From an archaeon (GTDB taxonomy: Archaea > Iainarchaeota > Iainarchaeia > Iainarchaeales > 1-14-0-10-31-34), in the NCBI GenBank assembly GCA_024277355.1, contig JAJRVL010000009.1:1-32000 (forward strand): a stretch of 32,000 nucleotides of DNA, in the 5' to 3' direction. Each line of letters starts with the position of its first letter. Position 1 is the stretch's first letter. The notes beneath the pieces were generated by a model. That model was not told the origin of the DNA and did no database searches. It saw nothing but the letters and a program-made list of their open reading frames with translations. A program made the position numbers and the translations under genes. Shown piece after piece: positions 775-31,893 of the stretch.

Positions 775-1006
775 ATCTTATGTATACTTTCAAAAAACTA
801 TTTAAAGATTTTTATAAAAATATTATTCTGGTATTGGGAGTTAAGGAAGCAAGTTATACTGTGAAACAGATCCCTGGCTTGCTTTTTTAACAACTATTTT
901 TTCAGAAAAATGAAATCACCAAAAATGCTTTTTGCTTTGCAAAAAATTCTTGTTTTTTAAAATTCAAATCCTTTATTAATTTTTCCAGACAATTTTGTTA
1001 TTGATT

Positions 1007-1057
1007 GTTTTTGTTTTAACAAAAACGTTTTTAATTAAACTTTTTTTAAAAAAGTTT
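1007..1057. repeat. Composite AT-rich palindromic element (B-type hairpin + TTTTTAATTAAAC + A-type hairpin) ending 3 nt before tRNA-Ser
   Basis: gtttttgttttaacaaaaac (1007-1026) is followed by gtttttaattaaac, then aaactttttttaaaaaagttt (1037-1057). A further B-type hairpin, tttttgctttgcaaaaa, lies at about 929-945. TTAATTAAA falls at about -30 to -22 relative to tRNA +1, so it may double as a TATA box. Confidence 0.7.
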
Positions 1058-1060
1058 ACT

Positions 1061-1264: not shown

Positions 1265-1831
1265 ATGAAAAAAATTTTTTTGTTAATTGTTTTTGGATTA
1301 ATTCTTTCAGGATGTATTCAAAACAATACTGAAAATACAAACACAGAAAATAACTTAAATAATTTAAATGAAATAAAAGAAAATAATTCAGGAGGAGTTG
1401 AATTGAGTAATACAGTAGAAAAAGGAGATTTAATTAAAGTTGAATATATAGGAAAGTTTCCTGACACAAAAGAAGTTTTTGATAAAAGTGAAGGCAGAGG
1501 CCCATTAGAGTTTACAGCAGGCGCAGGACAAATGATTAAAGGATTTGATGATGCAGTTATAGGCATGAAATTAAATGAAGAAAAAACTGTAATTATTGCT
1601 CCAGAAGATGCTTATGGTTCAGCTGATTCAGGAAAAAAAGCTGAAGTCCCTATAGCTCAAATTCAAGGAGAAGAAGAAGTAAAAGTTGGTTCAACTCTTT
1701 TTGCAGGAAATGGCCAGCAGGGAACAGTAATTGAAATAAAAGATGATATAGCAGTAATTGAATTCAAGCATCCAATGGCAGGAAAAACATTAGAGTTCTG
1801 GATTAAAGTTGTGGAAATAACTAAAGCTTAA
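1265..1831 (+). CDS. FKBP-type peptidyl-prolyl cis-trans isomerase, predicted lipoprotein
   Basis: N-terminal signal peptide with lipobox LILSGC. FKBP core motifs GDLIKVEYIGKF...GPLEFTAGAGQMIKGFDDAVIGMKLNEEK...PEDAYG and C-terminal HPMAGKTLEFWIKVVEI (SlyD-like). Confidence 0.85.
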   Translation: MKKIFLLIVFGLILSGCIQNNTENTNTENNLNNLNEIKENNSGGVELSNTVEKGDLIKVEYIGKFPDTKEVFDKSEGRGPLEFTAGAGQMIKGFDDAVIGMKLNEEKTVIIAPEDAYGSADSGKKAEVPIAQIQGEEEVKVGSTLFAGNGQQGTVIEIKDDIAVIEFKHPMAGKTLEFWIKVVEITKA

Positions 1832-1846
1832 TCCTTTTTCTTTTTT

Positions 1847-3019
1847 TTAATTTTGTTTTATTTTTTTATATGCTTCTCTAAAAGGAATTCCTTGTTTAAC
1901 TAATTTATGAATTTCTTTAACTGAATGCATTTCTTTTGTTATTCCTTTACTGCAGTTTTCTTTGTTTACTTTTGTTTTATTCAATACAATTTTTATTATT
2001 TTAAGGCAGTTTTTTGTATTGTTAAATCCTTTTATTACTGGCTCTTTAGTTAACTGAAAATCCCTATTATATCCTGAAATAAGGTTTCCAATAATATTTT
2101 TTATTTGAAATTCAAAAGCTAAATTTTCATAATATTTTGCCCTGACTATTTCTAATGCATCAGGATTTTTTTTATGAGGCATAATTGAACTTCCAGTGCA
2201 AATTTCTTTATTTAATTCAATAAAACCAAATTCACTCATGTTAAACAAAAGCATATCAGAAGAAATTTTATTTAAATCAAACATTACTTGGTTTAATGAA
2301 TTAAGAATAATTGACTCAAATTTTCCCCGGCTGTTCTGAACATAAATTGAATTATTCTGTATTTTTTTAAATCCAAGCAATTTTTTTGTTAATTTCCTGT
2401 CAGTTTTTACCGGAAGATTATATCCTGCGCCTGTTCCTAAAGGACTTTGGTCAAGAAGTTTATTAACAAAAAAAATTAATTTTTTGTTATCCTGCATTGA
2501 TTCAATAAAAGCCTGGCTCCATAAGCCAGCAGAAGAAGGAACTGCTTTCTGCATATGAGTATAGCCTGGCATTGCAATTTTTCCGTATTTTTTTTTAAAC
2601 AAAAATAATTCTTTAATTAATGCATCAATTAACTTAATTACATCTTTTATTTCATTTTTGTAATACAACCTTAATGCAGTTAAAACCTGATCATTCCTTG
2701 ACCTTAAAGCATGAATTTTTTTTCCTGTTTTACTTAATTTTTTTACAAGAAAATTTTCTATTGAAGTATGACAGTCTTCATCTTCTTTTTTTATTTTAAA
2801 TTTTTTTTGTTTGTCAAGTTTAATTATTTCATTTAATGCATTAATTATTTCACTGCATTCTTTTTTATTCAGTAATCCTTTTTTTTTCAGCATTATTGCG
2901 TGTGCAATTGAAGCAATACAGTCATATTTAATCAGTTTCTTGTCTAATAAAAAATCATTGCCTACAGTAAACTCTTCTATTTCTTTATTTAGTTTTAATT
3001 TTTTTTCCCATAACTTCAT
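1847..3019 (-). CDS. argH: Argininosuccinate lyase (compact, 390 aa)
   Basis: Fumarate-lyase family motifs [10 protein letters not shown] and [13 protein letters not shown]-terminus is ASL-like (LWEKK...ASIAHAIML). The start overlaps the argG stop by 4 nt. It appears tens of residues shorter than the ASLs I recall, ending soon after [11 protein letters not shown]. Confidence 0.9.
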
Positions 3020-5431: not shown

Positions 5432-5529
5432 TAAGCTTTTTTAATTCTTTTTATTGCATTATACTGTAAAGGTGAATTAAATTAAATTTCATTTCTTAAA
5501 TTTATTAAGGCAAATAAAAAATTCTTTTA

Positions 5530-6502: not shown

Positions 6503-6550
6503 TTCCTTTTTAATAGTTTTTTTACTGAAATTTTAAAGACTTATTTACTT

Positions 6551-6605
6551 GTTTTTGCTTTAGCAAAAACCGTTTTTTGATTAAACTTTTTTTTGAAAAA
6601 AGTTT
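6551..6605. repeat. Composite palindromic element (B + A hairpins) ending 3 nt before tRNA-Ser(GGA)
   Basis: gtttttgctttagcaaaaac (6551-6570), then cgttttttgatt, then aaacttttttttgaaaaaagttt (6583-6605). The architecture and the ...aaaagtttact|gcagagg junction match those at 1007-1060. Confidence 0.7.
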
Positions 6606-6692: not shown

Positions 6693-6747
6693 TTCCGAGC
6701 TACTCCTCGGAAGGGAGCGTGCTATCTTACGATAGCACTGCATAAAC
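6693..6747 (+). other. Conserved double-hairpin 3' trailer (H1 ttccgag-ctactc-ctcggaa; H2 tgctatc-ttac-gatagca; then CTGCATAAAC)
   Basis: It starts directly after the tRNA discriminator. Its H2 sequence and the downstream CTGC.ATAAAC are shared with the trailers at 8779-8843, 21713-21766 (-) and 28373-28429 (-). Confidence 0.6.
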
Positions 6748-8565: not shown

Positions 8566-8636
8566 AATAATATTAATTAAGTGTCTTGTAATTTAAAAGG
8601 TTTTTTTAATTTTATTTATTATAATAAATTATTTCT

Positions 8637-8719
8637 GCAGGGTTAGCCAAGCGGTCAACGGCGGTAGGTTGAGGGCCTATGACTTAGTGTCTACGGGGGT
8701 TCGAATCCTCCACTCTGCA
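8637..8719 (+). tRNA. tRNA-Leu(GAG), class II
   Basis: Acceptor gcagggt/actctgc (one G-U), D stem gcc/ggc, anticodon stem gtagg/cctat with loop ttGAGgg, variable stem gac/gtc, T arm ggggg-ttcgaat-cctcc, discriminator A. Confidence 0.9.
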
Positions 8720-8720
8720 A

Positions 8721-8750
8721 TTTTTGATCAAACTTTTTTTTAAAAAGTTT
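8721..8750. repeat. A-type palindromic unit between tRNA-Leu and a duplicated tRNA 3' fragment
   Basis: tttttgatcaaacttttttttaaaaagttt. Confidence 0.7.
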
Positions 8751-8778
8751 GCGGGCAGTTTGAATCCTCCACTCTGCA
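8751..8778 (+). pseudogene. Relic copy of the tRNA-Leu 3' end (T loop + acceptor 3' strand)
   Basis: gcgggcagtttgaatcctccactctgca versus the genuine acgggggttcgaatcctccactctgca (8693-8719). The last 17 nt are identical, and the relic can no longer form a T stem. Confidence 0.75.
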
Positions 8779-8843
8779 TTAACGGTTTTGTCCGCGAATA
8801 ACGCGTGCTATTTTTGCTTTGCTCAATAGCGCACTGCAATAAA
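8779..8843 (+). other. Double-hairpin trailer, variant with an enlarged H2 loop
   Basis: cgcg-aataa-cgcg, then gtgctatt-tttgctttgctc-aatagcgcac, then TGCAATAAA. The H2 loop sequence recurs at 31950-31975 in the rRNA spacer. Confidence 0.5.
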
Positions 8844-8854
8844 GGTTTCTCTGT

Positions 8855-9664
8855 TTATTTTTTTGTTAAATGTTTGTTTAATTCAGGATAATGTCTGTCA
8901 ATTAATTTTTCATCAATCATTTTTCTAATTATTTTTGCAACAAACAATTCATTTACTTCTATTCCTTGTGTTTTAAGATTTTTTAGTATTGTAGTTATTT
9001 TTCTTCTTGGATTTTTAATTAAAATTCTTCTTGTTGCAATGCTTTTTGGTTCTAATAGAGTTTGAGGTCTTAACTTTTGTTCAATTAAAGCCATATTTTT
9101 TTCATTTACTTTAAATCTAACTGGAATTCCAGCTAAATTTATTATTACGCTGTCAAGTCTTCCTTTTTGAGAAGAAATTTGCTTACTTTTTTTTGTTATT
9201 TTTAGTTTTTGGTTTATTGATTTAATTTTATGTTCTTCTTTTTTAGCTATTCTTTCAAGTTTTGTTCCTTGTCTTTCTCTGAAAGCCATATATTTATTAA
9301 TAGCAGTTGTCAGATTTTTGGCTGTTCCTCCTTCAATTCCTAATTTTTTCCTTTTTTTAATTGATTTTTGTCCTGATTTTTGTATTGCTTTTATTACTGT
9401 TCCTTTGCTTTGCTGTATTTGTTGAGCGTATGTTTTTGCATGTCGTCTTAATTCTATTTTTGTTTTCATTTTTGCTTTCATTAATTTAAGTAAATCAATC
9501 AAAATAGTTCTGCTTTGAATTGTTCTTAGATTTCCATTCATAATTCTTCTTGTAGTAAACCTTCTTTGGCTTAAAGGTTTTTTGAAATAACCTTTTTTAG
9601 CTATGTTTTCAATTTGAATTCTTCTTGGAATCTTTCTTTTTTTAAGTGCAGGCATAATTATCAT
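8855..9664 (-). CDS. Hypothetical, extremely basic (K/R-rich) protein
   Basis: 269-aa ORF with no recognisable catalytic motif. The C-terminal segment (GIEVNELFVAKIIRKMIDEKLI) could be a small helical DNA/RNA-binding module. Confidence 0.45.
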   Translation of the reverse strand: MIIMPALKKRKIPRRIQIENIAKKGYFKKPLSQRRFTTRRIMNGNLRTIQSRTILIDLLKLMKAKMKTKIELRRHAKTYAQQIQQSKGTVIKAIQKSGQKSIKKRKKLGIEGGTAKNLTTAINKYMAFRERQGTKLERIAKKEEHKIKSINQKLKITKKSKQISSQKGRLDSVIINLAGIPVRFKVNEKNMALIEQKLRPQTLLEPKSIATRRILIKNPRRKITTILKNLKTQGIEVNELFVAKIIRKMIDEKLIDRHYPELNKHLTKK

Positions 9665-12151: not shown

Positions 12152-12339
12152 GGGCCTGTAGCCTAGTGGATAAGGCATCAGCCTTCTAAACTTTTTTCGC
12201 AAAAAAGTTTAATCAAAAAAACCTTTTTCAAAAAAAGGTTTATCAAAAACGTTTTTGCTTTGCAAAAACTATTGATTTTTTTTGGTTTGGAAATAGTTAA
12301 GATAGCTGAGGATCGTGGGTTCGAATCCTCCCAGGCCCG
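12152..12339 (+). tRNA. tRNA-Arg(UCU) interrupted by a 115-nt intron at the canonical 37/38 position
   Basis: Exon 1 is gggcctg-ta-gcct-agtggata-aggc-a-tcagc-cttcta. Exon 2 is a-gctga-ggatc-gtggg-ttcgaat-cctcc-caggccc-g. Acceptor and anticodon stems are perfect; there is one T-stem mismatch (U50/C64). Confidence 0.85.
12189..12303 (+). other. BHB intron of tRNA-Arg, built almost entirely from three palindromic repeat units
   Basis: BHB: the central helix joins nt 33-35 (ttc) to intron aag (12299-12301). The 3-nt bulges are t-a-a (12187-12189) and a-t-a (12302-12304). The outer helix pairs acttttttc (12190-12198) with ggaaatagt (12289-12297). The body reads aaacttttttcgcaaaaaagttt|aatcaaaaa|aacctttttcaaaaaaaggttt|atcaaaaac|gtttttgctttgcaaaaac. 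Confidence 0.75.
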
Positions 12340-12405: not shown

Positions 12406-12440
12406 AGTCGTGCATCGTTGTGTCGCGGGCGAAACCGGGA
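12406..12440 (+). other. Conserved RNA-flank motif AGTCGTGCATCGT + hairpin with GCGAAA loop
   Basis: agtcgtgcatcgttgtg-tcgcgg-gcgaaa-ccggga here. On the minus strand of the rRNA spacer, agtcgtgcatcgtgct-taaacg-gcgaaa-cgttta occurs at 31862-31895, and the same sequence with a preceding A-T instead of A-G occurs at 31465-31498. The stems differ but keep their pairing. Confidence 0.5.
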
Positions 12441-14285: not shown

Positions 14286-14303
14286 TTTGATTCCTTTTTT
14301 TTT

Positions 14304-14335
14304 GTTTTTGATAAACCTTTTTTTGAAAAAGGTTT
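14304..14335. repeat. A-type palindromic unit in the ATPase-permease junction
   Basis: gtttttgataaacctttttttgaaaaaggttt. It is flanked by tgattcct+T-run on both sides (14288-14295 and 14339-14346). Confidence 0.65.
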
Positions 14336-16964: not shown

Positions 16965-17056
16965 TGAATTCAAGATTAGCTTTAGTTGAAAGCACTTCAG
17001 TTATTTTAAATAATGGATTAAATTTACTTGGAATTAAAACTTTAAATGAAATGTGA
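16964..17056 (+). CDS. argS: Detached ArgRS C-terminal segment (30 aa) in a different reading frame
   Basis: MNSRLALVESTSVILNNGLNLLGIKTLNEM* matches the ArgRS C-terminal helix pattern (RLAL...L..GL.LLGI....M-stop). Its ATG overlaps the TAA of the main ORF (TAATG). Confidence 0.8.
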   Translation: MNSRLALVESTSVILNNGLNLLGIKTLNEM

Positions 17057-17061
17057 TTGTT

Positions 17062-18867
17062 ATGGCTAAAAAATTAAATTACAATGAAATGCTTGAAAAA
17101 TTACTTAAAAATTATTATTCTTATAACAGACAGGAATTAGGTTTATTTGAAAGAGCATTTAAAGTATCAAAAAAAAGAAAAATTTTTGAAAATGCATTAA
17201 AATTACTTAAAAAAGTTCCAATAGAAGATGAATTTGGTTCAGCTTTAATTACCAAAGCTTTTTGGTATTCAAAAGAAAAACACGCAAAACAAAAAAGGTT
17301 TTCAGGAGAACCTTTTTTTATTCATCCATATAAAACAGCTTTATATTTAACTGAACTTGAAATGGATGCTGCTTCAATTACAGCAGGTTTTTTGCATGAC
17401 GTAGTTGAAGACACTGATACTCCTTTAAGTGAAATAAGAAAAGAATTTGGAGGCGAAGTTGCTTCTCTTGTAAAAAGTTTAACTAAATTAAGACATTTTG
17501 TTGCAATAAGCAAAAGAAAAGAACATAATGTTGCATTACAAAAAATTTTGTTTGCAACAACAAAAGATTTAAGAGTAATAATAATTAAGTTAGCAGACAA
17601 ATACCATAATCTGCAAACTTTAAATCATCTTCCTCAGGAAAAACAAATTAGAATTGCAACTAATGCACTTGAATTTTATGTTCCTGTAGCAAAAAAACTT
17701 GGATTACATGAATTAGAAGATCTTTTTGAAAAAATTTGTTTTAAAACAATTAAACCAAAAATTCATTCAAAAATAAGAAAGAAAAAAAATGAAAGCATTA
17801 AAGCAAAAGAACCTGAAATTGATTTAATAATAAAAAAACTTGAACCAGAACTAAAAAAAGCAGAACTTAATGTTTCTTTCAGAAAATACAAAAGAACTGC
17901 TTACACTGTATTCAAAAAAATGACTCAAAATTTAAAGTCTTTTAATGAAATTCAGGACTGCATTGTATTAATTGCTTTAACTGAAACAAGAGAACAATGT
18001 TATGAATTACTTGGATTACTGCATAACATGTTTTCTCCTATTCCCTTAAAATTCAGAGATCATATTGCTATTTCTCAGTTTCCTTTATATCAGTCAATTC
18101 ACACTACAGTAATTGGCCCAAAACACACTCCAGTTAAAATTTATATTAGAACAAAAAAAATGGATGCTTTAGTTAAACACGGAGTAACAGAACTGCTTAG
18201 AAGAACTAAAACAGAAAATGATGTTTTCACAGAAAACATTTCTTTTTTAAATAAATTAATGTCAATTAAACTTGATGACCTTGAATCAGAACATTTTATT
18301 GATTTGCTTAAATCTGATTACCTTCAGGACAGAATTATTGTTTTTACGCCTAATGGAAATTTAATTGATTTGCCTAAAGGAGCTTCAGTAATTGATTTTG
18401 CTTATGCAGTTAATGAAAAAAAAGCAGCTAAAGCAAGAAAAGCAAGAGTTAATGGAAAATTAGTTCCTTTATGGCATAAATTAAGCAATGGAAATTTAGT
18501 TGAAGTTGTTGCAGGAAAAAAAATTCAGGTTTCAAAAGTATGGCAAAATTTTGCTATTTCAGTTAAAGCAAGAGAAGAAATAGAAAAATATTTAAAGAAA
18601 AAAAGAATAGTAAAAGAAAAAATGCCTTTTGTTAATTTAGAATTCAAGGCAATAGACAGAATTGGCTTATTAAATGATTTCACTGAAGCTTTTGTTTCAG
18701 TTCAGGCAAATATTTTTTCTGCTGAATTAAGAACAAATGATAAAAGCGGGTTAGGAATAAACTTTTTTACTTTAGAATTATCTGATCCAAAAAAACTTAA
18801 TGTTTTATTAAAAAAACTAAAAAAAATTAAAGGAGTAATAGAAATAAAATCAAATTTTATAGAATGA
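17062..18867 (+). CDS. Long RelA/SpoT homolog (HD hydrolase - synthetase-like - TGS - ACT)
   Basis: HD domain GEPFFIHPYKTALYLTELEMDAASITAGFLHDVVEDT...RVIIIKLADKYHNLQTL. Synthetase-like YQSIHTTVIGPKHTPVKIYIRTKKM. TGS IIVFTPNGNLIDLPKGASVIDFAYAV. C-terminal ACT-like FKAIDRIGLLNDFTEAF. The alternative GTG start at 17053 overlaps the argS tail. Confidence 0.85.
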   Translation: MAKKLNYNEMLEKLLKNYYSYNRQELGLFERAFKVSKKRKIFENALKLLKKVPIEDEFGSALITKAFWYSKEKHAKQKRFSGEPFFIHPYKTALYLTELEMDAASITAGFLHDVVEDTDTPLSEIRKEFGGEVASLVKSLTKLRHFVAISKRKEHNVALQKILFATTKDLRVIIIKLADKYHNLQTLNHLPQEKQIRIATNALEFYVPVAKKLGLHELEDLFEKICFKTIKPKIHSKIRKKKNESIKAKEPEIDLIIKKLEPELKKAELNVSFRKYKRTAYTVFKKMTQNLKSFNEIQDCIVLIALTETREQCYELLGLLHNMFSPIPLKFRDHIAISQFPLYQSIHTTVIGPKHTPVKIYIRTKKMDALVKHGVTELLRRTKTENDVFTENISFLNKLMSIKLDDLESEHFIDLLKSDYLQDRIIVFTPNGNLIDLPKGASVIDFAYAVNEKKAAKARKARVNGKLVPLWHKLSNGNLVEVVAGKKIQVSKVWQNFAISVKAREEIEKYLKKKRIVKEKMPFVNLEFKAIDRIGLLNDFTEAFVSVQANIFSAELRTNDKSGLGINFFTLELSDPKKLNVLLKKLKKIKGVIEIKSNFIE

Positions 18868-18871
18868 CTAA

Positions 18872-18928
18872 TTAGCTGTTAATCATTTTTTTTAAGGCTT
18901 CTATATCTTCTATTTTTCCTCTCGCCAT
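18872..18928 (-). pseudogene. Displaced relic of the alaS 3' end
   Basis: The minus strand reads atg gcg aga gga aaa ata gaa gat ata gaa gcc tta aaa aaa atg att aac agc taa = MARGKIEDIEALKKMINS*. The functional alaS C-terminus is IARGKIENKDALKEIIKN*. About 45 of 54 nt are identical to 18995-19046. Confidence 0.75.
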
Positions 18929-18988
18929 CAAACTTTTTCAGAAAAAGTTTGAACAAAAACGGTTTTCGCTATGCGAAAACTATTGAAA
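18929..18988. repeat. Composite palindromic element (A + B hairpins) between the relic and the functional alaS 3' end
   Basis: caaactttttcagaaaaagtttg, then aacaaaaac, then ggttttcgctatgcgaaaact, then attgaaa. Confidence 0.7.
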
Positions 18989-21649
18989 TTAATTTTTAAT
19001 TATTTCTTTTAAGGCGTCTTTATTTTCTATTTTTCCTCTTGCAATTTTGTCGTTTCCGCCGCCTTTTCCTTTTGTTTTAACAAAAATTTCTTTTAAAGTA
19101 TTTTTAGCTTTTAGTTTTGATTTGCTTCCTTCAATAACTAAAATTTCATTTCCATTAACTAAAACAAATTCTGCTTTAGGGTTTTCTTTTGCTAATTTGT
19201 TTCCTAAAGAAATAACTGTTTTTACAGGCATATCATCAGCTAAAATAAAATTTCTTCCAGAATTATTTTTTATTTTGAATTCTTTTTCTGTAAAATTTCC
19301 TTTATTTATTTGTTTTCTTAATTTTTTCCATTCTTCAATTATTCTTTTATTTGATTCAAGTATTTTTGTTTCAGGGCTTCCAAGTAATTCAGCTGTTTCT
19401 CTAATTATTTTTTCTTTTTCCTGAATTAATTTAATTGCACTTAATCCAACAGTATAATTAATTCTTTCAATTCCATCTTTTATTCCGTCTCTTTTAATTA
19501 TTTTAAATAAACCAATTTCACCGGTGTTTTTTATATGGGTTCCTCCGCATGCTTCAACATCATAACCTTTAATATTTAAAATTCTTAATTCTTTTCCAGG
19601 AACAGCCCCGCCTTGATATAACCTAAAACCATATTTTTGTTCAGCTAAATTTCTATCTAAAACAAAATTCTCAACTTCAACGTTTTCCTGAATGATTTTA
19701 TTTGCAGTAAATTCAATTTTTCTTAATTCTTCTGATGAAATTTTCTTAAAGTGAGTTAAATCTAAATGTGCTTTATGTTCATCTTTTTTACTTCCGCCCT
19801 GCCAGATATGATTTCCTAATACTTCTCTTGCAGCAGCATTTAATACATGAGCTGCAGTATGATGCTTCATTATGCTGTGGCGTTTTTTCCAGTTAATTTT
19901 TCCTATTACAGTCATTCCTTTTTTAAATGAATTAGCTTTCTCCATTTCATGTAATATTACTCCCTGCTGCTGTTGTGTATCTAAAACTTTTACTCCGTTT
20001 ATTTCTCCTGTGTCTCCAATTTGTCCTCCGCCTTCAGGATAAAAAATAGTTTTATCTAATACTAAATAATTTTCTATTGTACCTAAAACTTTTCCCTGAA
20101 ATTCCTGCATATACCTGTCGTCATAATACAAAGGAAAAGTTTTGTCAAATTTAACTGTAAATTCTCTTTCTTTTTCTTTTTCAATTTCATCATCTTTTGC
20201 TATCATTTGATAAAAATTCTGCGGAATTTCAACTTTAATTCCTTTTTTTTCTGCAATTTCTTTTATTGTTTCAGGTGCAATTCCATCTGATTCATATAAA
20301 GTAAGTAATTCAGATGAAGTAATTCCTTTTGTTTTACTTGTTTTTTCTATAACTGAATTTAATTTTTTTTCTGCATTTAATTTGCTTGCATTATATTTTT
20401 TTTCTTCTTCATGAATAATGTCAATTGCTGTATTTACTCCTTCTTTTATTTCTTCATCTAATTCTTTTAAATGCAAAGCATGGTTTTCAAGTATTTTTCC
20501 AAAATCTAAATTAAAATTAAATTCTTTATTAAAAGCAAAAACTCTTCTTAACAGCATTCTTAAATTATATCCTCCGCCTGAATTAGACGGAAGCATACCG
20601 TCATTAGTTGTATAAAGAATATTCTTCAAGTGATCAGCAATCCCATATAATGCCTGTAATTTTTCTAAATCAGAAAAAAATTCTTTTCCTGCACCAATTT
20701 TTTTGCCAATTAATCCCTTTTGTTTTTCATAATCAGTTAAATCACTTTCAAGTTTTCCTGATAATTTAGCGTATTCAGTAAAAAGTTTTTCGTTTACTTT
20801 AATTCCAGTTTGTTTTTTCATATCATAAATTGCTTTTCCAAAAGCAATTTCATAACTTGTAGCTGAACCATTAGTAAACCAGGCTAATCTTTCTAATCCT
20901 GCTCCCATGTCAATTACTTTTGTATCTAATTCCCTGTATTTTCCGTTTCCCATATCCTTGTATTGCATAAAAACAATATTTCCTAATTCAACTCCATTAG
21001 CACAATATTCAATGCAAGGCCCAAATGAACCTCCTCCCATCCAGACGTCTTCCTGAAAAACTAAATCTTTTTCTTTTACTCCTAAAACTTTCATTACATA
21101 TTCATAATCATATTTTATTGCTTCTTCTTTCCAGTAAAATTCTCCGGTTTTTTTTGTATTAAATGCATGCTGTCCAAACATTACAAAACAAGTATAATGT
21201 CTTCCAGTTACTCCAACATTATTTACGTCTCCAAACCTAATGCTTGTCTGAGGTACAATTAAAGGGTTAGCTGGAGGATCAAATTCTCCGTTAACAACAT
21301 AAGGCTGAAAATCAATTATTGAAGCATTAGTAAAATATAAGTCATCTCTCCATCTGCTTACAGTTGGATAACGTTTAATTGAAGTATGCTTGTTTTTTTC
21401 AAAAAACTTTTCTATTTCTTTCCATGTTTCAATATAACTTAATTTTTTTGTTGATTTTCCAATAAAGTCATATCCAACACAGCTTGCATCAGCACAAGTT
21501 TTTCTGCTTGAATCAACTGACCAAAAATTTACTCCGCAAGAACTACATTTTTTTCTTTGAAATCCTTTATCTTTAAAGAATTTTAAGTTATAATGTTTTT
21601 TCCAGTCTTTAGCAAACTTTTCTTTTAATTCTTTTTTTGAAACACTCAT
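18989..21649 (-). CDS. alaS: Alanyl-tRNA synthetase, archaeal type
   Basis: 886 aa. The N-terminus (FFKDKGFQRKKCSSCGVNFWS) is archaeal-type. Editing-domain HxxxH (HTAAHVLNAA) and CGGTH are present, as is the C-terminal DHHA1-like GKGGGNDKIARG. Confidence 0.95.
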   Translation of the reverse strand: MSVSKKELKEKFAKDWKKHYNLKFFKDKGFQRKKCSSCGVNFWSVDSSRKTCADASCVGYDFIGKSTKKLSYIETWKEIEKFFEKNKHTSIKRYPTVSRWRDDLYFTNASIIDFQPYVVNGEFDPPANPLIVPQTSIRFGDVNNVGVTGRHYTCFVMFGQHAFNTKKTGEFYWKEEAIKYDYEYVMKVLGVKEKDLVFQEDVWMGGGSFGPCIEYCANGVELGNIVFMQYKDMGNGKYRELDTKVIDMGAGLERLAWFTNGSATSYEIAFGKAIYDMKKQTGIKVNEKLFTEYAKLSGKLESDLTDYEKQKGLIGKKIGAGKEFFSDLEKLQALYGIADHLKNILYTTNDGMLPSNSGGGYNLRMLLRRVFAFNKEFNFNLDFGKILENHALHLKELDEEIKEGVNTAIDIIHEEEKKYNASKLNAEKKLNSVIEKTSKTKGITSSELLTLYESDGIAPETIKEIAEKKGIKVEIPQNFYQMIAKDDEIEKEKEREFTVKFDKTFPLYYDDRYMQEFQGKVLGTIENYLVLDKTIFYPEGGGQIGDTGEINGVKVLDTQQQQGVILHEMEKANSFKKGMTVIGKINWKKRHSIMKHHTAAHVLNAAAREVLGNHIWQGGSKKDEHKAHLDLTHFKKISSEELRKIEFTANKIIQENVEVENFVLDRNLAEQKYGFRLYQGGAVPGKELRILNIKGYDVEACGGTHIKNTGEIGLFKIIKRDGIKDGIERINYTVGLSAIKLIQEKEKIIRETAELLGSPETKILESNKRIIEEWKKLRKQINKGNFTEKEFKIKNNSGRNFILADDMPVKTVISLGNKLAKENPKAEFVLVNGNEILVIEGSKSKLKAKNTLKEIFVKTKGKGGGNDKIARGKIENKDALKEIIKN

Positions 21650-21712: not shown

Positions 21713-21766
21713 GTTATAGCAGTGCTATCAAAGATAGCTCATCGTAGCCGCCAGCCAAAACTGGCG
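21713..21766 (-). other. Conserved double-hairpin trailer downstream of RNase P RNA
   Basis: The minus strand reads ccgccag-ttttgg-ctggcgg, ctacgatg, agctatc-tttg-atagc(a)ct, GCTATAAC. It aligns position by position with the 23S trailer at 28373-28429. Confidence 0.6.
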
Positions 21767-22062
21767 GGGTTGTGGAGAGTAAGCCGCTTTTTGTTTTACC
21801 AGCATTCACCTTTGCGTCTTAAAGACTTGCACTCCCAGAACATATTTCATTTCTGTTTAACCTAAAGCACGTTTCATCCTTTTTCCAGAAAACTCACTTA
21901 AAGGTCATCATAATTCTGGAATGGTTTCGTTTCTGCTCTTCAGGAAACCCTCTAAGGTTTGTTTTTGATGAAACTTTTTTTAAAAGTTTCTAGGAATGAG
22001 TGAGCGGACTTTCCTCAGCTCCATTTCGAAAAATGGTACCGTCAGCTGGTCTTCCACTACCC
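21767..22062 (-). ncRNA. rnpB: RNase P RNA
   Basis: The minus strand has CR-I GAGGAAAGTCCG (complement of 22005-22016) and a CR-V-like AAAAAGCGGCTTAC (complement of about 21779-21792). P1 pairs GGGTAGTGGAAG (22062-22051) with CTCTCCACAACCC (21779-21767). P3-like hairpin ccattt-ttcg-aaatgg; P5 CTCAC/GTGAG; internal ACAGAAA. A TTTAAAAA TATA-like box lies about 23-30 nt upstream. Confidence 0.75.
21956..21990. repeat. A-type palindromic unit embedded in the RNase P RNA specificity-domain region
   Basis: The plus strand reads ggtttgtttttgatgaaactttttttaaaagtttc. On the RNA strand it follows CR-I/P5 by about 12 nt. The near-repeat CATTCCTAG / CATTCCAG on the RNA strand brackets it plus 45 nt. Confidence 0.6.
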
Positions 22063-23794: not shown

Positions 23795-24607
23795 ATGTTG
23801 CATACAATCAGAACTTTTCCGTTTGAATACTCATTAAATAAAGCTGAAATAACTGTTTTAGGAATTCCTTTTGATTCAACTGAAACAGGAAAATCAGTTA
23901 AATATGGTTCTTTATTTATCCGCGAAGCCATAAAAAATCTTCCAGGATTTGACTTAGAAACAAAAACAAACATTTATGAAAAATTCAAGTTCGCTGATTC
24001 AGGAGATGTAGAAGTTGTTCCAGGAAACTGGAATTTAACTGAAAAAAAAATTAATGAAACAATCAAAGAAATATTTAAAGAAAACCCAAAAATTTTTCCG
24101 ATTTTTTTTGGCGGAGAACACTTAATTTCTTTAGCAGTAATTAATGCTTTAACTGAAATAAAAAAAGAAAAAATAACAGTAATTCATTTTGATGCACACA
24201 GAGATTTAATGCCTGAATTTTTAGGAGAAAAATTTTCACACATAACCTGGGGAAATCATTTACTAAACAATAAAAACATTGAGTTAATTCAGTTAGGAAT
24301 CAGAAGTTCTTCTCCAGAAGAAGAAAAAACAGCAAAAAAATTTAAAATAAAAAATACATTAAAAAACATTAAAGGAAAAGTTTATGTTTCAGTTGATTTA
24401 GATGTATTTGATCCTGTTTTTGCACCTGAAGTCGGCACACCAGAACCTTTTGGAATGAAACAACATGAATTTTTTTCTTTACTAAAAAAAGTCTGCAATA
24501 AAAATCTAATTGGATTAGATTTAGTTGAATGTTCTTCAGATAAAATTAATACTCAAACAGCATTGCTTGCTGCAAATATTTTTAAAAAGGTTTTAGCATG
24601 GAAGTAA
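23795..24607 (+). CDS. speB: Agmatinase / ureohydrolase family protein
   Basis: Mn-binding motifs GGEHLIS, HFDAHRDL and SVDLDVFDPVFAPEVGTPEP. Substrate specificity (agmatine versus a related guanidino compound) cannot be read from the sequence. Confidence 0.8.
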   Translation: MLHTIRTFPFEYSLNKAEITVLGIPFDSTETGKSVKYGSLFIREAIKNLPGFDLETKTNIYEKFKFADSGDVEVVPGNWNLTEKKINETIKEIFKENPKIFPIFFGGEHLISLAVINALTEIKKEKITVIHFDAHRDLMPEFLGEKFSHITWGNHLLNNKNIELIQLGIRSSSPEEEKTAKKFKIKNTLKNIKGKVYVSVDLDVFDPVFAPEVGTPEPFGMKQHEFFSLLKKVCNKNLIGLDLVECSSDKINTQTALLAANIFKKVLAWK

Positions 24608-25920
24608 AATTATCTCACGGAAAAGGAAATCATATTGGATTTGACTGTTTTAATTGCAATAAAAAAGCATTAAATGATGAAAAAAAAGTAAAAGAATTTT
24701 TAATTGAAATTTCTGATGCAATTGAAATGAAAAGACTATGCAAACCTGTTGTAATTTCCCATAAACATGAAAAAAAAACTGAAAGCGGAATAACTGGTTT
24801 TGTTATTATTTCTGAAAGCCATATTTCAATTCACACTTACCCTGAAAAAGGCGAAGCATTTATTGATGTTTTTTCCTGCAAAGAATTTAATGAAACCAAA
24901 GCAAAAAATAAAATACAGGAATTTTTTTCTCCAAAAAAAATTGAAAAACTAATTAATTTCAGAGGAAAAGGAAAATTTAATTTAGAAAAATTATCTATTC
25001 CAATTAAAGGAAAAACTAATGCAAAAACAATTCCTGAATTAATTACAGGAATGGATTCAATTGGATTCCAGGCAAGCCATTTAAGCAAAGCAGGAAAAAT
25101 AATAAAAAAAATGCAGTCAGAAAAAGCAGTAATTTTTTTGTCTTTTACTTCTAACATGGTTTCATCTGGTTTAAGAGAATTATTTGCTTTTATGTTAAAA
25201 CACAAAATGGTTAATGCAGTTATAACTACTGTTGGTTCAATTGAAGAAGACTTAATGAAAACCCATAAACCTTTTTTATTAGGAAGCTTTGAAGCAAATG
25301 ATTTAGATTTACATAAAAAAGGAATTAATCGAATAGGCAATATTTTTGTTCCAACTGAAAGATATAAATGGCTGGAAAAACAATTACAGCCTTTTTTTAA
25401 AGAAATGTATTTTTTACAGAAAAAAAAATCAAGACTGCTTTCTTCCCGTGAAATAATTTTTGAGTTAGGAAAAAAAATTAAAGACGAAAACTCAATTCTT
25501 TTTTGGGCGACAAAAAACAATATTCCAGTTTTTTGTCCTGCAATAACTGACGGTGCATTTGGCTTAAACCTTTATACTTTTAAACAGCAAAACAAAACTT
25601 TTGGAATTGACGTTACAGCAGACATGCAGGAATTAGCTGACTTAGTTTTAACAGCAGAAAAAACTGCATGAATAATTTTAGGAGGAAGTGTTCCAAAACA
25701 CCATTTAATCGGCATAAATATTTTAAGAGACGGATTAGATTATGCAGTTTATGTTTCAACTGCAACAGAAGGAGATGGATCATTATCAGGAGCAAAAGTA
25801 AAAGAAGCAGTTTCATGGGGAAAAATAAATGAAAAATCAGAAAACATTTACATTGAAGGAGATGCAACAATAATTTTTCCTTTATTATTTTATTCAATGA
25901 AAGAAAATTCAGGAAAGTAA
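24598..25920 (+). CDS. Fusion: SpeH-type pyruvoyl-dependent decarboxylase proenzyme (aa 1 to about 120) + deoxyhypusine synthase (aa about 125-440), with an in-frame TGA at 25669-25671
   Basis: N-terminal GFVIISESHISIHTYPEKGEAFIDVFSC carries the AdoMetDC/ArgDC self-cleavage motif E|SH at 24814-24822. DHS motifs are GFQASHL, FLSFTSNMVSSGLRE, VITTVGSIEEDL and GINRIGNIFVP. After the TGA come [20 protein letters not shown] and EAVSWGKI. The start overlaps the agmatinase stop by 10 nt. Confidence 0.75.
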
Positions 25921-28372: not shown

Positions 28373-28429
28373 ATATGACAGCGCTATCGAAGATAGTGCG
28401 TCGTACCCAACAGCCGAAACTGTTGTTGG
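28373..28429 (-). other. Conserved double-hairpin trailer downstream of the 23S rRNA
   Basis: The minus strand reads caacag-tttcgg-ctgttg, ggtacgacg, cactatc-ttcg-atagcg, CTGTCATATC. The 5' side of H1 overlaps the outer helix of the BHB. Confidence 0.6.
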
Positions 28430-31464: not shown

Positions 31465-31496
31465 TAAACGTTTCGCCGTTTAAGCACGATGCACGA
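31465..31496. repeat. 32-bp exact direct repeat, copy A (just upstream of the 23S processing stem)
   Basis: taaacgtttcgccgtttaagcacgatgcacga, identical to 31862-31893. Confidence 0.9.
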
Positions 31497-31861: not shown

Positions 31862-31893
31862 TAAACGTTTCGCCGTTTAAGCACGATGCACGA
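31862..31893. repeat. 32-bp exact direct repeat, copy B (abutting the 5' end of tRNA-Ala)
   Basis: Identical to 31465-31496. Weaker similarity continues for about 20 nt beyond it. Confidence 0.9.

Follow-up and report, generated by a model that had tools for sequence, protein, structure and literature searches.

A hairpin module flanked by two copies of the alaS 3' end in a DPANN archaeon

How does the gene for an essential aminoacyl-tRNA synthetase come to be followed, on its own strand, by a second and diverged copy of its own 3' end? This question is raised by the alaS gene in a 32,000-nt stretch of DNA (hereafter the window) from a small-genome, AT-rich DPANN archaeon of Diapherotrites/Iainarchaeia-like affinity. 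The gene itself is intact: its product matches the tRNA-synt_2c, tRNA_SAD and DHHA1 Pfam models, the last of which reaches residue 885, and is 78–80% identical in amino acid sequence to its counterparts in syntenic relatives. A repeat search recovered a 59-nt direct repeat of 83% identity at a spacing of 117 nt, one copy of which includes the functional tail, its stop codon and 2 further nt, while the other starts at the foot of a hairpin and encodes a relic tail (Table 1). The copies are identical at 49 of 59 positions (47 of 57 when codons and stop are counted) and lie in one frame (117 nt being 39 codons), with a stop in each. The earlier note on this DNA had described such an in-frame similarity, and it withstands comparison with chance: the next-best match of the relic 59-mer on either strand of the window reaches 34/59 (mean 17.8, s.d. 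3.8), and the local alignment between the two flanks of the insert scores 68, versus a maximum of 47 among 3000 random flank pairs. The relic stop (18872–18874) lies 4 nt, rather than the 5 nt given before, from the TGA stop (18865–18867) of the convergent gene for a RelA/SpoT homologue (RSH).

The two tails are not contiguous, as 58 bp of unrelated dispersed-repeat sequence lie between them. Read along the minus strand, the alaS end (...ATTGCAAGAGGAAAAATAGAAAATAAAGACGCCTTAAAAGAAATAATTAAAAATTAA) is followed by TTTCAATA, hairpin A (GTTTTCGC-ata-GCGAAAAC), the linker CGTTTTTGTT, hairpin B (CAAACTTTTT-ctg-AAAAAGTTTG) and ATGGCGAGAGGAAAAATAGAAGATATAGAAGCCTTAAAAAAAATGATTAACAGCTAA. Both palindromes, which had been proposed from inspection, have stems of 8 bp and 9–12 bp, respectively, and fold as predicted. 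The same layout of a hairpin A, a T-run linker of the GTTTTTGAT type and a hairpin B defines a module that is present in four full copies (74–81% identity) and at least six partial ones within 32 kb. The alaS insert is recovered by a profile of the four copies with an nhmmer E-value of 3e-16, and its closest relative is the copy in a tRNA intron (48/59). The module copies have diverged from each other about as much as the two alaS tails. The motif T5[GA]AT stands directly 5' of the B-type hairpins at sites 1027, 6572, 8721, 14304, 21961 and 31755, and also in relatives; the linker of the alaS insert is degenerate, with GTT versus GAT or AAT elsewhere. Upstream of four tRNA genes a GTTTTT(T)[AG]A(A)T motif ends 25–27 nt before the tRNA 5' end, and at the two tRNA-Ser genes this motif is the module linker, with hairpin B filling the spacer to the tRNA. 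The module is devoid of terminal inverted repeats (TIRs): its palindromes are internal, and one end (TCAATAGTTTT...) does not mirror the other (...AAAAAGTTTG). A flank test found no flanking repeat at five of eight module sites, and the lengths of the known flanking repeats vary (59, 27, 15 and about 10–12 nt).

Table 1. Features of the window discussed in the text (strand refers to the window as read)
Feature	Position	Strand	Details	Evidence
Full module copy	1001..1058	+	Hairpin A, GTTTTTAAT, hairpin B; ends 2 nt before tRNA-Ser(UGA)	
Full module copy	6545..6604	+	Hairpin A, GTTTTTTGAT, hairpin B; ends 2 nt before tRNA-Ser(GGA)	
Relic layout 3' of tRNA-Leu (8636-8720)	8721..8778	+	ATTTTTGAT, hairpin B (8729-8751), 27-nt relic of T-arm and 3' end (8752-8778)	
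Full module copy	12220..12275	-	Within the ~115-nt intron of a tRNA (12152-12339)	
Linker plus B-type hairpin	14304..14335	+	GTTTTTGAT and hairpin, between ABC ATPase stop and permease start	
RSH gene	17053..18867	+	Convergent with alaS	Pfam HD_4, RelA_SpoT, TGS, ACT
Direct-repeat copy 2	18870..18928	-	Relic tail MARGKIEDIEALKKMINS plus stop (18872-18928)	
58-bp insert	18929..18986	-	One full module copy: TCAATA (18981-18986), hairpin A (18962-18980), linker (18952-18961), hairpin B (18929-18951)	Sequence, palindromes, RNA fold, nhmmer
Direct-repeat copy 1	18987..19045	-	Functional tail IARGKIENKDALKEIIKN plus stop and 2 nt	
alaS	18989..21649	-	Alanyl-tRNA synthetase, intact, 886 aa	ORF list, Pfam
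GAT plus B-type hairpin	21962..21990	+	Inside RNase P RNA gene	Alignment with L001, L002, L020

Neither in nor near the alaS insert is there any cargo. A comparison of 27 window ORFs with Pfam yielded no integrase, transposase or recombinase, and the insert encodes none; likewise, no reverse transcriptase, RAYT or tnpA/tnpB is present in the 32-kb window. An Rfam search of positions 18750–19150 returned nothing below E = 2.6, and a known structured RNA family was accordingly rejected for the insert. A BHB intron, or alternative splicing of the alaS 3' region, was likewise set aside, as the fold has only hairpins A and B and no bulge-helix-bulge.

The RSH gene is syntenic in L001/L010, L002 and L012. 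An empty site had been predicted, and L002 has one: its alaS stop lies 6 nt from the convergent RSH stop. The alaS tail of L012 is unduplicated, and the insert is missing at the orthologous site in both. The L002 tail aligns to both window copies, and blastn matches the relic to the L002 alaS end. Moreover, it sits where the gene end of the relatives lies, in agreement with the proposed geometry of an intact proximal copy, an insert and a distal relic. The duplicated alaS end and the 58-bp module are a genuine insertion scar, and the distal tail copy is a non-functional, decaying relic in the ancestral position beside the RSH stop. In L002 the alaS and RSH transcripts would overlap; the T-runs and hairpins of the insert, present on both strands, would separate these convergent 3' ends in the window.

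The two window tails are each other's closest relatives: an extra codon and four derived sites are common to them relative to three relatives, which points to an origin of the current end in the window's own or a very close lineage. The earlier suggestion that the current end came from another lineage is therefore not supported. Its companion, that the distal copy is the displaced original, is borne out as regards position; however, each copy has private sequence changes. The tails differ by eight non-synonymous codons versus one synonymous codon. Across DPANN the AlaRS tail beyond ARGK is 2–20 residues long, indicating that changes in it are tolerated.

A further scar is found at the alaS end of L001, where an exact 15-nt repeat, TTTGCCAGAGGAAAA, surrounds a 97-nt insert with three hairpins, identically in three separate assemblies (L001, L010 and L011). 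The repeats of the window and of L001 share a left edge at the (I/F)ARGK codons, and their exact blocks overlap in AGAGGAAAA. The star phylogeny of the four lineages argues for separate insertions and against one inherited event. The L001 insert also carries a 17-nt stretch, GAACTCAAAGAGTTCCT, that matches without a difference the codons for the ELKEFL tail in alaS from L007, a GC-rich distant relative (53% amino acid identity, 50% GC); the alignment of the insert with the L007 tail scores 34, versus a mean of 16.4 and a maximum of 28 for shuffles. The functional tail of L001 is unrelated to its relic beyond the 15 nt, and this relic is without a start codon. At 14 other loci, comprising two close relatives and more distant DPANN, no alaS-tail relic above shuffle controls was detected 3' of alaS. 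Scans of IMG/VR with the module, the alaS core and the L001 17-mer gave chance-level matches only, with no attP-like copy; the best of them (L055) is a bacterial phage with a split DNA polymerase III and homing endonucleases. Exact look-ups of RSH, AlaRS and P0121 returned no closer relatives or other strains, and an AlaRS protein search for closer relatives yielded nothing above 52% identity.

Comparable layouts occur elsewhere in the window. The relic downstream of tRNA-Leu includes 17 exactly matching nt, the whole insert there being 31 bp; this layout recurs in L023/L024 and L025, and the relic is conserved in three lineages. The repeat boundaries coincide with gene ends, namely the alaS stop plus 2 nt and position 73 of tRNA-Leu, and at the window alaS, the L001 alaS and tRNA-Leu the distal repeat follows immediately upon the foot of hairpin B. 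The linker and B-type hairpin at the ABC ATPase/permease junction are flanked by a short repeat (GGAATCAtAA/GGAATCAAAATG) that attains only p~0.1 in the window flank test; the same junction in L010 has an exact 12-nt repeat. Within the RNase P RNA gene the hairpin is found in the window lineage only, as compared with L001, L002 and L020, and has no flanking repeat. Here GTTTTT continues into T(G/A)GGAATG at the empty sites and into GAT and the hairpin at the filled one (GTTTTT-GAT-hairpin), implying that GAT arrives with the hairpin and is not a pre-existing target. On a larger scale, L010 has a 1.15-kb islet with a Fic gene between ~56-nt repeats that start in the T-loop of a tRNA; no integrase is found in this islet or in an insertion in L012, which hold only the Fic/DOC gene and an unannotated 217-aa ORF. 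Fragments of tRNA genes in archaea have been attributed to integrated elements (PMC9897764, PMC3293823). Module presence differs among relatives at orthologous sites. As the alaS scar shows, the ends of genes and RNAs in this DPANN lineage are still being reshaped by small hairpin cassettes.

The reading of the alaS scar that we favor, with a probability of about 0.4, is a single recombinational, att-like (Campbell-type) insertion, in which a tiny non-autonomous cassette would have restored the alaS end. This very small DNA would have carried the hairpin module and a copy of the alaS stretch between the (I/F)ARGK codons and the stop, and its crossover with the chromosome would have taken place in the conserved core AGAGGAAAA(ATAGAA), with AGAGGAAAAATAGAA as the proposed core for recombinase action; in a circular cassette, the junction would join the foot of hairpin B to ATTGCAAGAGG. 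The insertion would have made alaS complete again and pushed the other tail copy away from it, the incoming tail being derived from the window lineage or a very close one, and a recombinase not encoded in the window, or host short-homology recombination, would act in trans. A repeat far above chance, the empty site of L002, the unduplicated tail of L012, the L001 event at the same codons with its L007-type 17-mer and the tRNA-end repeats of the clade (the tRNA-Leu relic and the Fic islet) all favor such an insertion; furthermore, recombination that had to restore the gene would place the repeat boundaries at gene ends. Against it stand the lack of a recombinase among the window ORFs or in the insert, the lack of an attP-like copy in viral contigs, and the correspondence of the insert to precisely one copy of a dispersed module, which lacks flanking repeats at five other sites; together with the single hairpins in RNase P RNA, likewise without a repeat, this suggests that the module may have a separate means of moving. 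The sister relationship of the tails is exactly what a purely local duplication predicts, and coding constraint could explain the 15-nt core free of mismatches. We know of no precedent for an integrating unit of 117 bp. The earlier idea of a foreign replacement end delivered by an integrative element thus survives in part: the geometry, the L001 event, the 17-mer and the tRNA-end repeats agree with it, whereas the want of an integrase and the dispersed-module nature of the insert do not.

Somewhat unlikely is a reading in which the module itself is mobile or templated, an A-linker-B copy having been pasted into the end of alaS through a replication or repair template switch, or through transposition of an unspecified kind; the re-copied 59 bp of target would then be a long, variable target-site duplication (TSD), with no tail borne by the element. 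The four full copies with their tail-like divergence, their variable occupancy of orthologous sites, the foot of hairpin B meeting the distal repeat at three sites in the manner of an element terminus, the variable repeat lengths and the sister tails are all as expected on this account. However, it does not account for two repeats that stop precisely where their gene does or for the left edge common to two lineages, leaves the L007-type 17-mer of L001 unexplained and meets five of eight module sites that lack a flanking repeat. The junctions also present no usable microhomology: a match to the 5' end of tRNA-Ser (GCAGAGG versus GCAAGAGG) was considered for the right junction and rejected, as the first 11 nt of the relic follow alaS, in length and sequence, and not the tRNA.

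That two unrelated steps were involved, in which the last ~57 bp of alaS were first duplicated in contiguous tandem and a module later entered the new joint, is improbable. Hairpin modules have indeed settled by themselves in non-coding places that tolerate them, as in the RNase P RNA and the tRNA intron, and a tandem duplication behind a stop codon would be neutral; nevertheless, two rare events would have had to meet at one base pair repeatedly (window alaS, L001 alaS and tRNA-Leu), and the intermediate with contiguous tails is seen in no relative. We regard as very improbable a functional distal copy, in which the module would be a promoter that initiates at the foot of hairpin B and directs either a leaderless 18-aa peptide (the relic reading) or an RNA antisense to the RSH 3' end. 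The spacing of GTTTTT(T)[AG]A(A)T before four tRNAs, the ATG with which the relic starts directly after hairpin B and the persistence of the tRNA-Leu relic in three lineages would accord with this; the absence of a start codon in the L001 relic, the excess of non-synonymous tail differences and the degenerate GTT linker do not. The window derives from a single 59.6-kb contig of a metagenome-assembled genome, a second assembly of the organism was not found, and a chimeric join of strain variants might accordingly be suspected; yet the recurrence of the L001 structure in separate assemblies and of the tRNA-Leu analogue in three lineages, a divergence of 17%, which is far beyond strain variation, and an insert that is a bona fide genomic repeat make such an artefact exceedingly improbable. 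Diversity-generating retroelements (DGRs) are common in DPANN, and a gene whose 3' end is repeated, nearly unchanged, a short way downstream recalls one, with the alaS tail as VR and the distal copy as TR, but no more than 2 of 10 mismatches are at adenines in the putative template, which refutes the proposal, no reverse transcriptase is among the window ORFs, the target is a housekeeping synthetase and an equal layout occurs at a tRNA gene, leaving it a negligible chance.

Among known systems, archaeal integrative elements with SSV-, pNOB8- and pTN3-type integrases leave att duplications at the 3' ends of tRNA and other genes (PMC9897764, PMC3293823). The scar resembles these in its complete proximal copy, insert and distal partial relic, in the empty site of relatives, in boundaries at the gene end and in tRNA cases that begin in the T-arm or T-loop; it differs in having no integrase or cargo, in its 58-bp insert (31 bp at tRNA-Leu) that belongs to a dispersed repeat family and in its target, a protein-coding tail. 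The CIMEs of streptococcal ICEs are att-bounded bacterial elements, kilobases long, that are mobilised in trans. They share with the present case att copies bounding an element without its own recombinase and, as the stacked tails of L001 suggest, tandem accretion at one site; we know of no CIME-like elements of about 0.1 kb. In their many short extragenic palindromes, paired clusters, location after genes and between convergent genes, and conserved motif at one hairpin foot (here T5GAT), the modules are like REP/BIME sequences. Nevertheless, REPs are G+C-rich with a GTAG foot, and they need a RAYT, the gene for which was not seen in the 32 kb examined; to our knowledge, REPs are absent from archaea and give rise to no duplication of the gene ends beside them.

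Rickettsia palindromic elements and the SPRITE and Correia MITEs are 100–240 bp long, with TIRs or short fixed TSDs (PMC10969869). Like them, the modules are small palindromic repeats tolerated in coding regions and RNA genes and carry transcription signals; L001 offers a further likeness in that the tail beyond ARGK in its AlaRS is no longer the ancestral one, which is kept downstream. Of the usual MITE hallmarks, the module has many copies but neither TIRs nor a fixed short TSD, its flanking repeats being long, variable or absent. The IS200/IS605 family inserts 3' of a fixed pentanucleotide, which for ISDra2 is TTGAT (PMC2806898). At most B-type sites TTGAT stands directly 5' of the hairpin, as in that family; unlike there, GAT comes with the hairpin (RNase P RNA) and no tnpA/tnpB is present. 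The alaS site also has a duplication, and we are aware of no target duplication upon IS200/IS605 insertion. Casposons use a Cas1 integrase and produce a 14–15-bp TSD at the 3' ends of tRNA or EF-2 genes (PMC5137440, PMC4779613). The insertion at the 3' ends of conserved genes and the exact 15-nt flanking repeat of L001 recall them; the lack of TIRs, Cas1 and polymerase, and a repeat length that is not fixed (59 nt in the window), set the present case apart.

The small repeat families and integration scars of DPANN are almost undescribed, and static, streamlined genomes are assumed for these archaea; the 32 kb of the window and four relatives reveal a fast-turnover family of hairpin modules that punctuate tRNA genes, fill a tRNA intron and sit in RNase P RNA, and that have twice, independently, remodelled the C-terminal region of an essential synthetase. 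It is conceivable, though doubtful, that the clade harbours the smallest integrating elements yet: non-autonomous cassettes of ~60–120 bp, made of a promoter/terminator-like hairpin module and a copy of the target 3' end, mobilised in trans, site-specific both for the ARGK codons of alaS and for the T-arms of tRNAs, and acting as portable transcription punctuation that rewrites protein C-termini, tRNA introns and RNase P RNA. As a variant, the cassettes may move by way of an intermediate made of RNA or hairpin DNA, in keeping with the long, variable target duplications. Site-specific mobilisation, if true, would provide a minimal model for the regeneration of target genes by integrating elements, and the cassettes would show how transcription signals spread in tiny genomes. 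In genome annotation, the relics yield spurious small ORFs and tRNA fragments.

Past the alaS tail, the minus strand reads TTTCAATA, hairpin A (GTTTTCGC-ata-GCGAAAAC), CGTTTTTGTT and hairpin B (CAAACTTTTT-ctg-AAAAAGTTTG), directly adjoined by a second, decayed copy of the tail, the relic (ATGGCGAGAGG...AACAGCTAA, translated as MARGKIEDIEALKKMINS and a stop). The relic stop lies 4 nt from that of the convergent gene for a RelA/SpoT homologue (RSH). A repeat search returned the two tails as a 59-nt direct repeat with 83% identity and a spacing of 117; the relic 59-mer matches the alaS tail at 49/59 positions, as against 34/59 for the runner-up anywhere in the window. Thus, the arrangement of functional end, insert and relic described in an earlier note is correct, and the likeness of the tails is above chance, with the flanks of the insert aligning at a score of 68 against a maximum of 47 among 3000 random flank pairs. 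The alaS 3' structure is a real, well-documented insertion scar: insert and duplication, with an empty site in a relative and recurrence at the same codons, are seen by direct comparison.

Features of the window and of related loci (L numbers)
Feature	Position	Strand or site	Remarks
alaS	18989-21649	minus	886 aa; tail ends ...IARGKIENKDALKEIIKN, stop; identity by Pfam
Functional tail	18987-19045	minus
Insert (one full module)	18929-18986	minus	58 bp
Relic	18870-18928	minus
RSH, long RelA/SpoT homologue	17053-18867	convergent with alaS	Pfam
Full module		ends 2 nt upstream of tRNA-Ser(UGA)
Full module		ends 2 nt upstream of tRNA-Ser(GGA)
Full module, inverted		inside ~115-nt intron of tRNA at 12152-12339
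Linker+B unit		after tRNA-Leu
Linker+B unit		ABC ATPase/permease junction
Linker+B unit		rRNA spacer after tRNA-Ala
Linker+B unit		inside RNase P RNA
GTTTTT(T)[AG]A(A)T sites	~1027, 6572, 8601, 12126
GC-rich hairpin	6719-6738, 28381-28399, ~21715-21745, ~8805-8841		GYRCTATC-N3-4-GATAGCRC, then CTGYNATA
tRNA-Leu(GAG), T5GAT, hairpin, 27-nt relic	window 8636-8778; L023 1383-1531; L025 1000-1154		three lineages
tRNA Arg-UCU	window 12152-12339; L010 11850-12060; L012 ~9326-9564		anticodon loop CUUCUAA
Hairpin + ATCAAAAA	window 14286-14335; L010 8381-8498	between ABC ATPase stop and permease start	stop/RBS junction duplicated: 12-nt exact repeat in L010, 8-10 nt in window
RNase P RNA	window 21768-22061; L001 ~1634-2073		L001 also has 57-nt GC-rich element
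217-aa ORF	L012 1903-2588	exactly between alaS and RSH stops	no confident Pfam match
Fic/DOC islet	L010 10679-11866	after tRNA-Arg	palindromic operator-like repeats
GTGCATCGTGCTTAAACGGCGAAACGTTTA, 30-nt GC-rich motif	31465-31494, 31862-31891	directly 5' of tRNA-Ala and 23S rRNA	variant at 12410; L001 copy 5466-5511
S-adenosylmethionine decarboxylase/deoxyhypusine synthase fusion	24598-25671		one ORF

Rfam models for archaeal LSU rRNA and archaeal RNase P RNA match the window, whose GC content is ~27-29%, and its nearest AlaRS loci come from Diapherotrites/Iainarchaeia-type DPANN MAGs. Four syntenic relatives (L001, L010 and L011 counted as one; L002; L012; L020) have 78-80% AlaRS identity to it. 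Judged by pairwise identities and by quartet site counts, the phylogeny of these lineages is a star, without a window+L001 grouping; a second assembly of the window organism, or a closer relative, was looked for and not found. The empty site proposed as a check in the earlier note, with the alaS stop facing the RSH stop, is present in L002, where alaS ends in KIAKGKIEDRAALDKMNK and 6 nt separate the stops. By blastn the one L002 tail aligns to both window copies, and the relic thus occupies the gene-end position of a relative. L012 has a single tail (FARGKIENRKELEKMIK), then an inserted 217-aa ORF and then RSH, so that the junction has received different insertions in three of four lineages. 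The L001/L010/L011 locus (three assemblies) is filled differently, by TTTGCCAGAGGAAAA, 97 nt with three hairpins, and TTTGCCAGAGGAAAA-ATAGAAAAC running on to MIK and a stop, the flanking repeat being 15 nt and exact. This event and that of the window share their left edge, at the (I/F)ARGK codons. Between the L001 relic and the functional tail of L012, 48/54 nt and 16/17 aa agree; the L001 functional tail (VFEKEKLKKLF) is unrelated to that relic outside the repeat. Given the star phylogeny and the good preservation of its relic, the L001 event is recent and separate from that of the window. Downstream of alaS, 14 further loci, most of them from more distant DPANN, yielded no relic.

The suggestion that the window alaS acquired a foreign replacement end is unsupported. 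Its two tails are identical at 47/57 positions, with only 37-43/54 to relatives, and share one additional codon and four derived sites; private changes number about 3 in the functional copy and about 4-5 in the relic. The identity, extra codon and derived positions indicate that both descend from one tail of this or a very close lineage. Alanyl-tRNA synthetase C-termini in DPANN extend from 2 to about 20 residues past ARGK/AQGK, a variation by which the tail appears dispensable. The L001 insert, however, contains GAACTCAAAGAGTTCCT, identical to the ELKEFL codons in the alaS tail of L007 (53% AlaRS amino-acid identity; 50% GC) and absent elsewhere among the archaeal loci compared; the two align at a score of 34, whereas shuffled sequences average 16.4 and reach at most 28. 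This L007-type string within the L001 insert suggests that inserts of this kind carry alaS tails along with them.

Rather than a private remnant, the insert is a member of a dispersed module (hairpin A, a GTTTTTGAT-type linker and hairpin B) found at three further window sites. A four-copy profile recovers each window copy at E = 1e-11 to 3e-16 and in relatives detects no more than the linker+B half; no Rfam family matched the insert. Copies are 74-81% identical to one another, a divergence about that of the two alaS tails. Filled-versus-empty comparisons in RNase P RNA and the tRNA intron reveal rapid turnover: a 24-nt GAT+hairpin in RNase P RNA occurs in the window only, a 57-nt three-hairpin insertion at another place in L001 only, and the hairpin content of the intron differs lineage by lineage. 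This fast-evolving family of hairpin modules has repeatedly reshaped the ends of genes, tRNAs and RNase P RNA in a DPANN clade, and represents a variation on known small-repeat and att-scar phenomena.

Parallel structures are seen at RNA genes. In the window, ATTTTTGAT and hairpin B separate tRNA-Leu from CGGGCAGTTTGAATCCTCCACTCTGCA, a copy of the T-arm and 3' end of that tRNA in which 17 nt are exact. The same layout is found in L023/L024 and L025, where the relic decays mainly by C-to-T; the near-perfect state of the window relic against this decay suggests gene conversion or renewed duplication. Past the L010 tRNA-Arg lies an islet of 1.15 kb that bears a Fic/DOC gene; it is flanked by a ~56-nt repeat, which extends from the GAATCC of the T-loop across a B hairpin and into the trailer. 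The window presents the empty state. Archaeal partial tRNA genes have been ascribed to integrated elements (PMC9897764), and the integration of such elements has been proposed to drive intron gain and fragment scattering (PMC3293823). The Arg-UCU tRNA, missed by default ARAGORN, has an intron of 115-130 nt built from hairpin modules that contain T5-T8 runs. In L010 this intron starts with a hairpin and AACAAAAC, an arrangement otherwise found after RNA 3' ends, and ends with GTTTTTGAT and a hairpin that stops 2 nt short of the 3' exon, the arrangement found ahead of tRNA 5' ends; hence the halves might be separately transcribed, as a cis-arranged split tRNA.

As to mechanism, we favor, with a probability of roughly 0.4, an att/Campbell-type recombinational insertion of a minimal non-autonomous cassette, which would have consisted of an alaS tail copy and the module. 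This is argued for by the repeats stopping at the gene end in alaS and tRNA-Leu, the same left edge in two lineages, the stacked tail fragments of L001 and the tRNA T-arm repeats of the clade. Against it, modules sit at other sites without repeats: a flanking repeat accompanies only three of eight, namely alaS (68), tRNA-Leu (37, p~0.005) and, borderline, the ABC junction. The integrative origin advanced in the earlier note is plausible but unproven; Pfam detects no recombinase among 27 window ORFs scanned. Scans of viral contigs gave chance matches only, and we know of no precedent for so small an integrating unit. The main rival, in which template switching or a transposition of unknown kind placed the module at the site and produced long, variable target duplications, accounts for the behavior of the family and for the sister tails in the window; it leaves the repeat boundaries and the foreign 17-mer of L001 unexplained, and we regard it as less likely. 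The remaining probability is divided among an origin in two steps, a relic with a function, an artefact of assembly and a diversity-generating retroelement (DGR), the last being ruled out by the mismatch pattern between the tail copies.

The modules may also have a present role. The motif GTTTTT(T)[AG]A(A)T stops 25-27 nt short of the mature 5' ends of tRNA-Ser1, tRNA-Ser2, tRNA-Leu and the intron-containing tRNA, and is likely a TATA-type box, the geometry being that of an archaeal TATA with nearly leaderless tRNAs. This spacing would make the transcripts almost leaderless; an RNase P RNA gene is nonetheless present. At both tRNA-Ser genes the motif is the module linker, with hairpin B filling the spacer. 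T-runs are archaeal termination signals; the module has T5-T8 runs on both strands, and the insert would provide separate ones to the convergent alaS and RSH, whose 3' ends must overlap in L002, being only 6 nt apart. A conserved GC-rich hairpin lies a few tens of nt beyond tRNA-Ser2, 23S rRNA, RNase P RNA and the tRNA-Leu relic. Stable RNAs may use it as a signal for termination or for processing of their 3' ends.

The GTGCATCGTGCTTAAACGGCGAAACGTTTA motif is able to pair with the 23S trailer; its L001 copy (87-92% identity) lies between the alaS relic and the RSH stop, placing the motif also at non-rRNA sites. RSH is a full-length homologue, with HD, synthetase, TGS and ACT domains, in a DPANN archaeon, and four relatives keep it in synteny with argS and alaS; as far as we know, archaea seldom have long RSH proteins.
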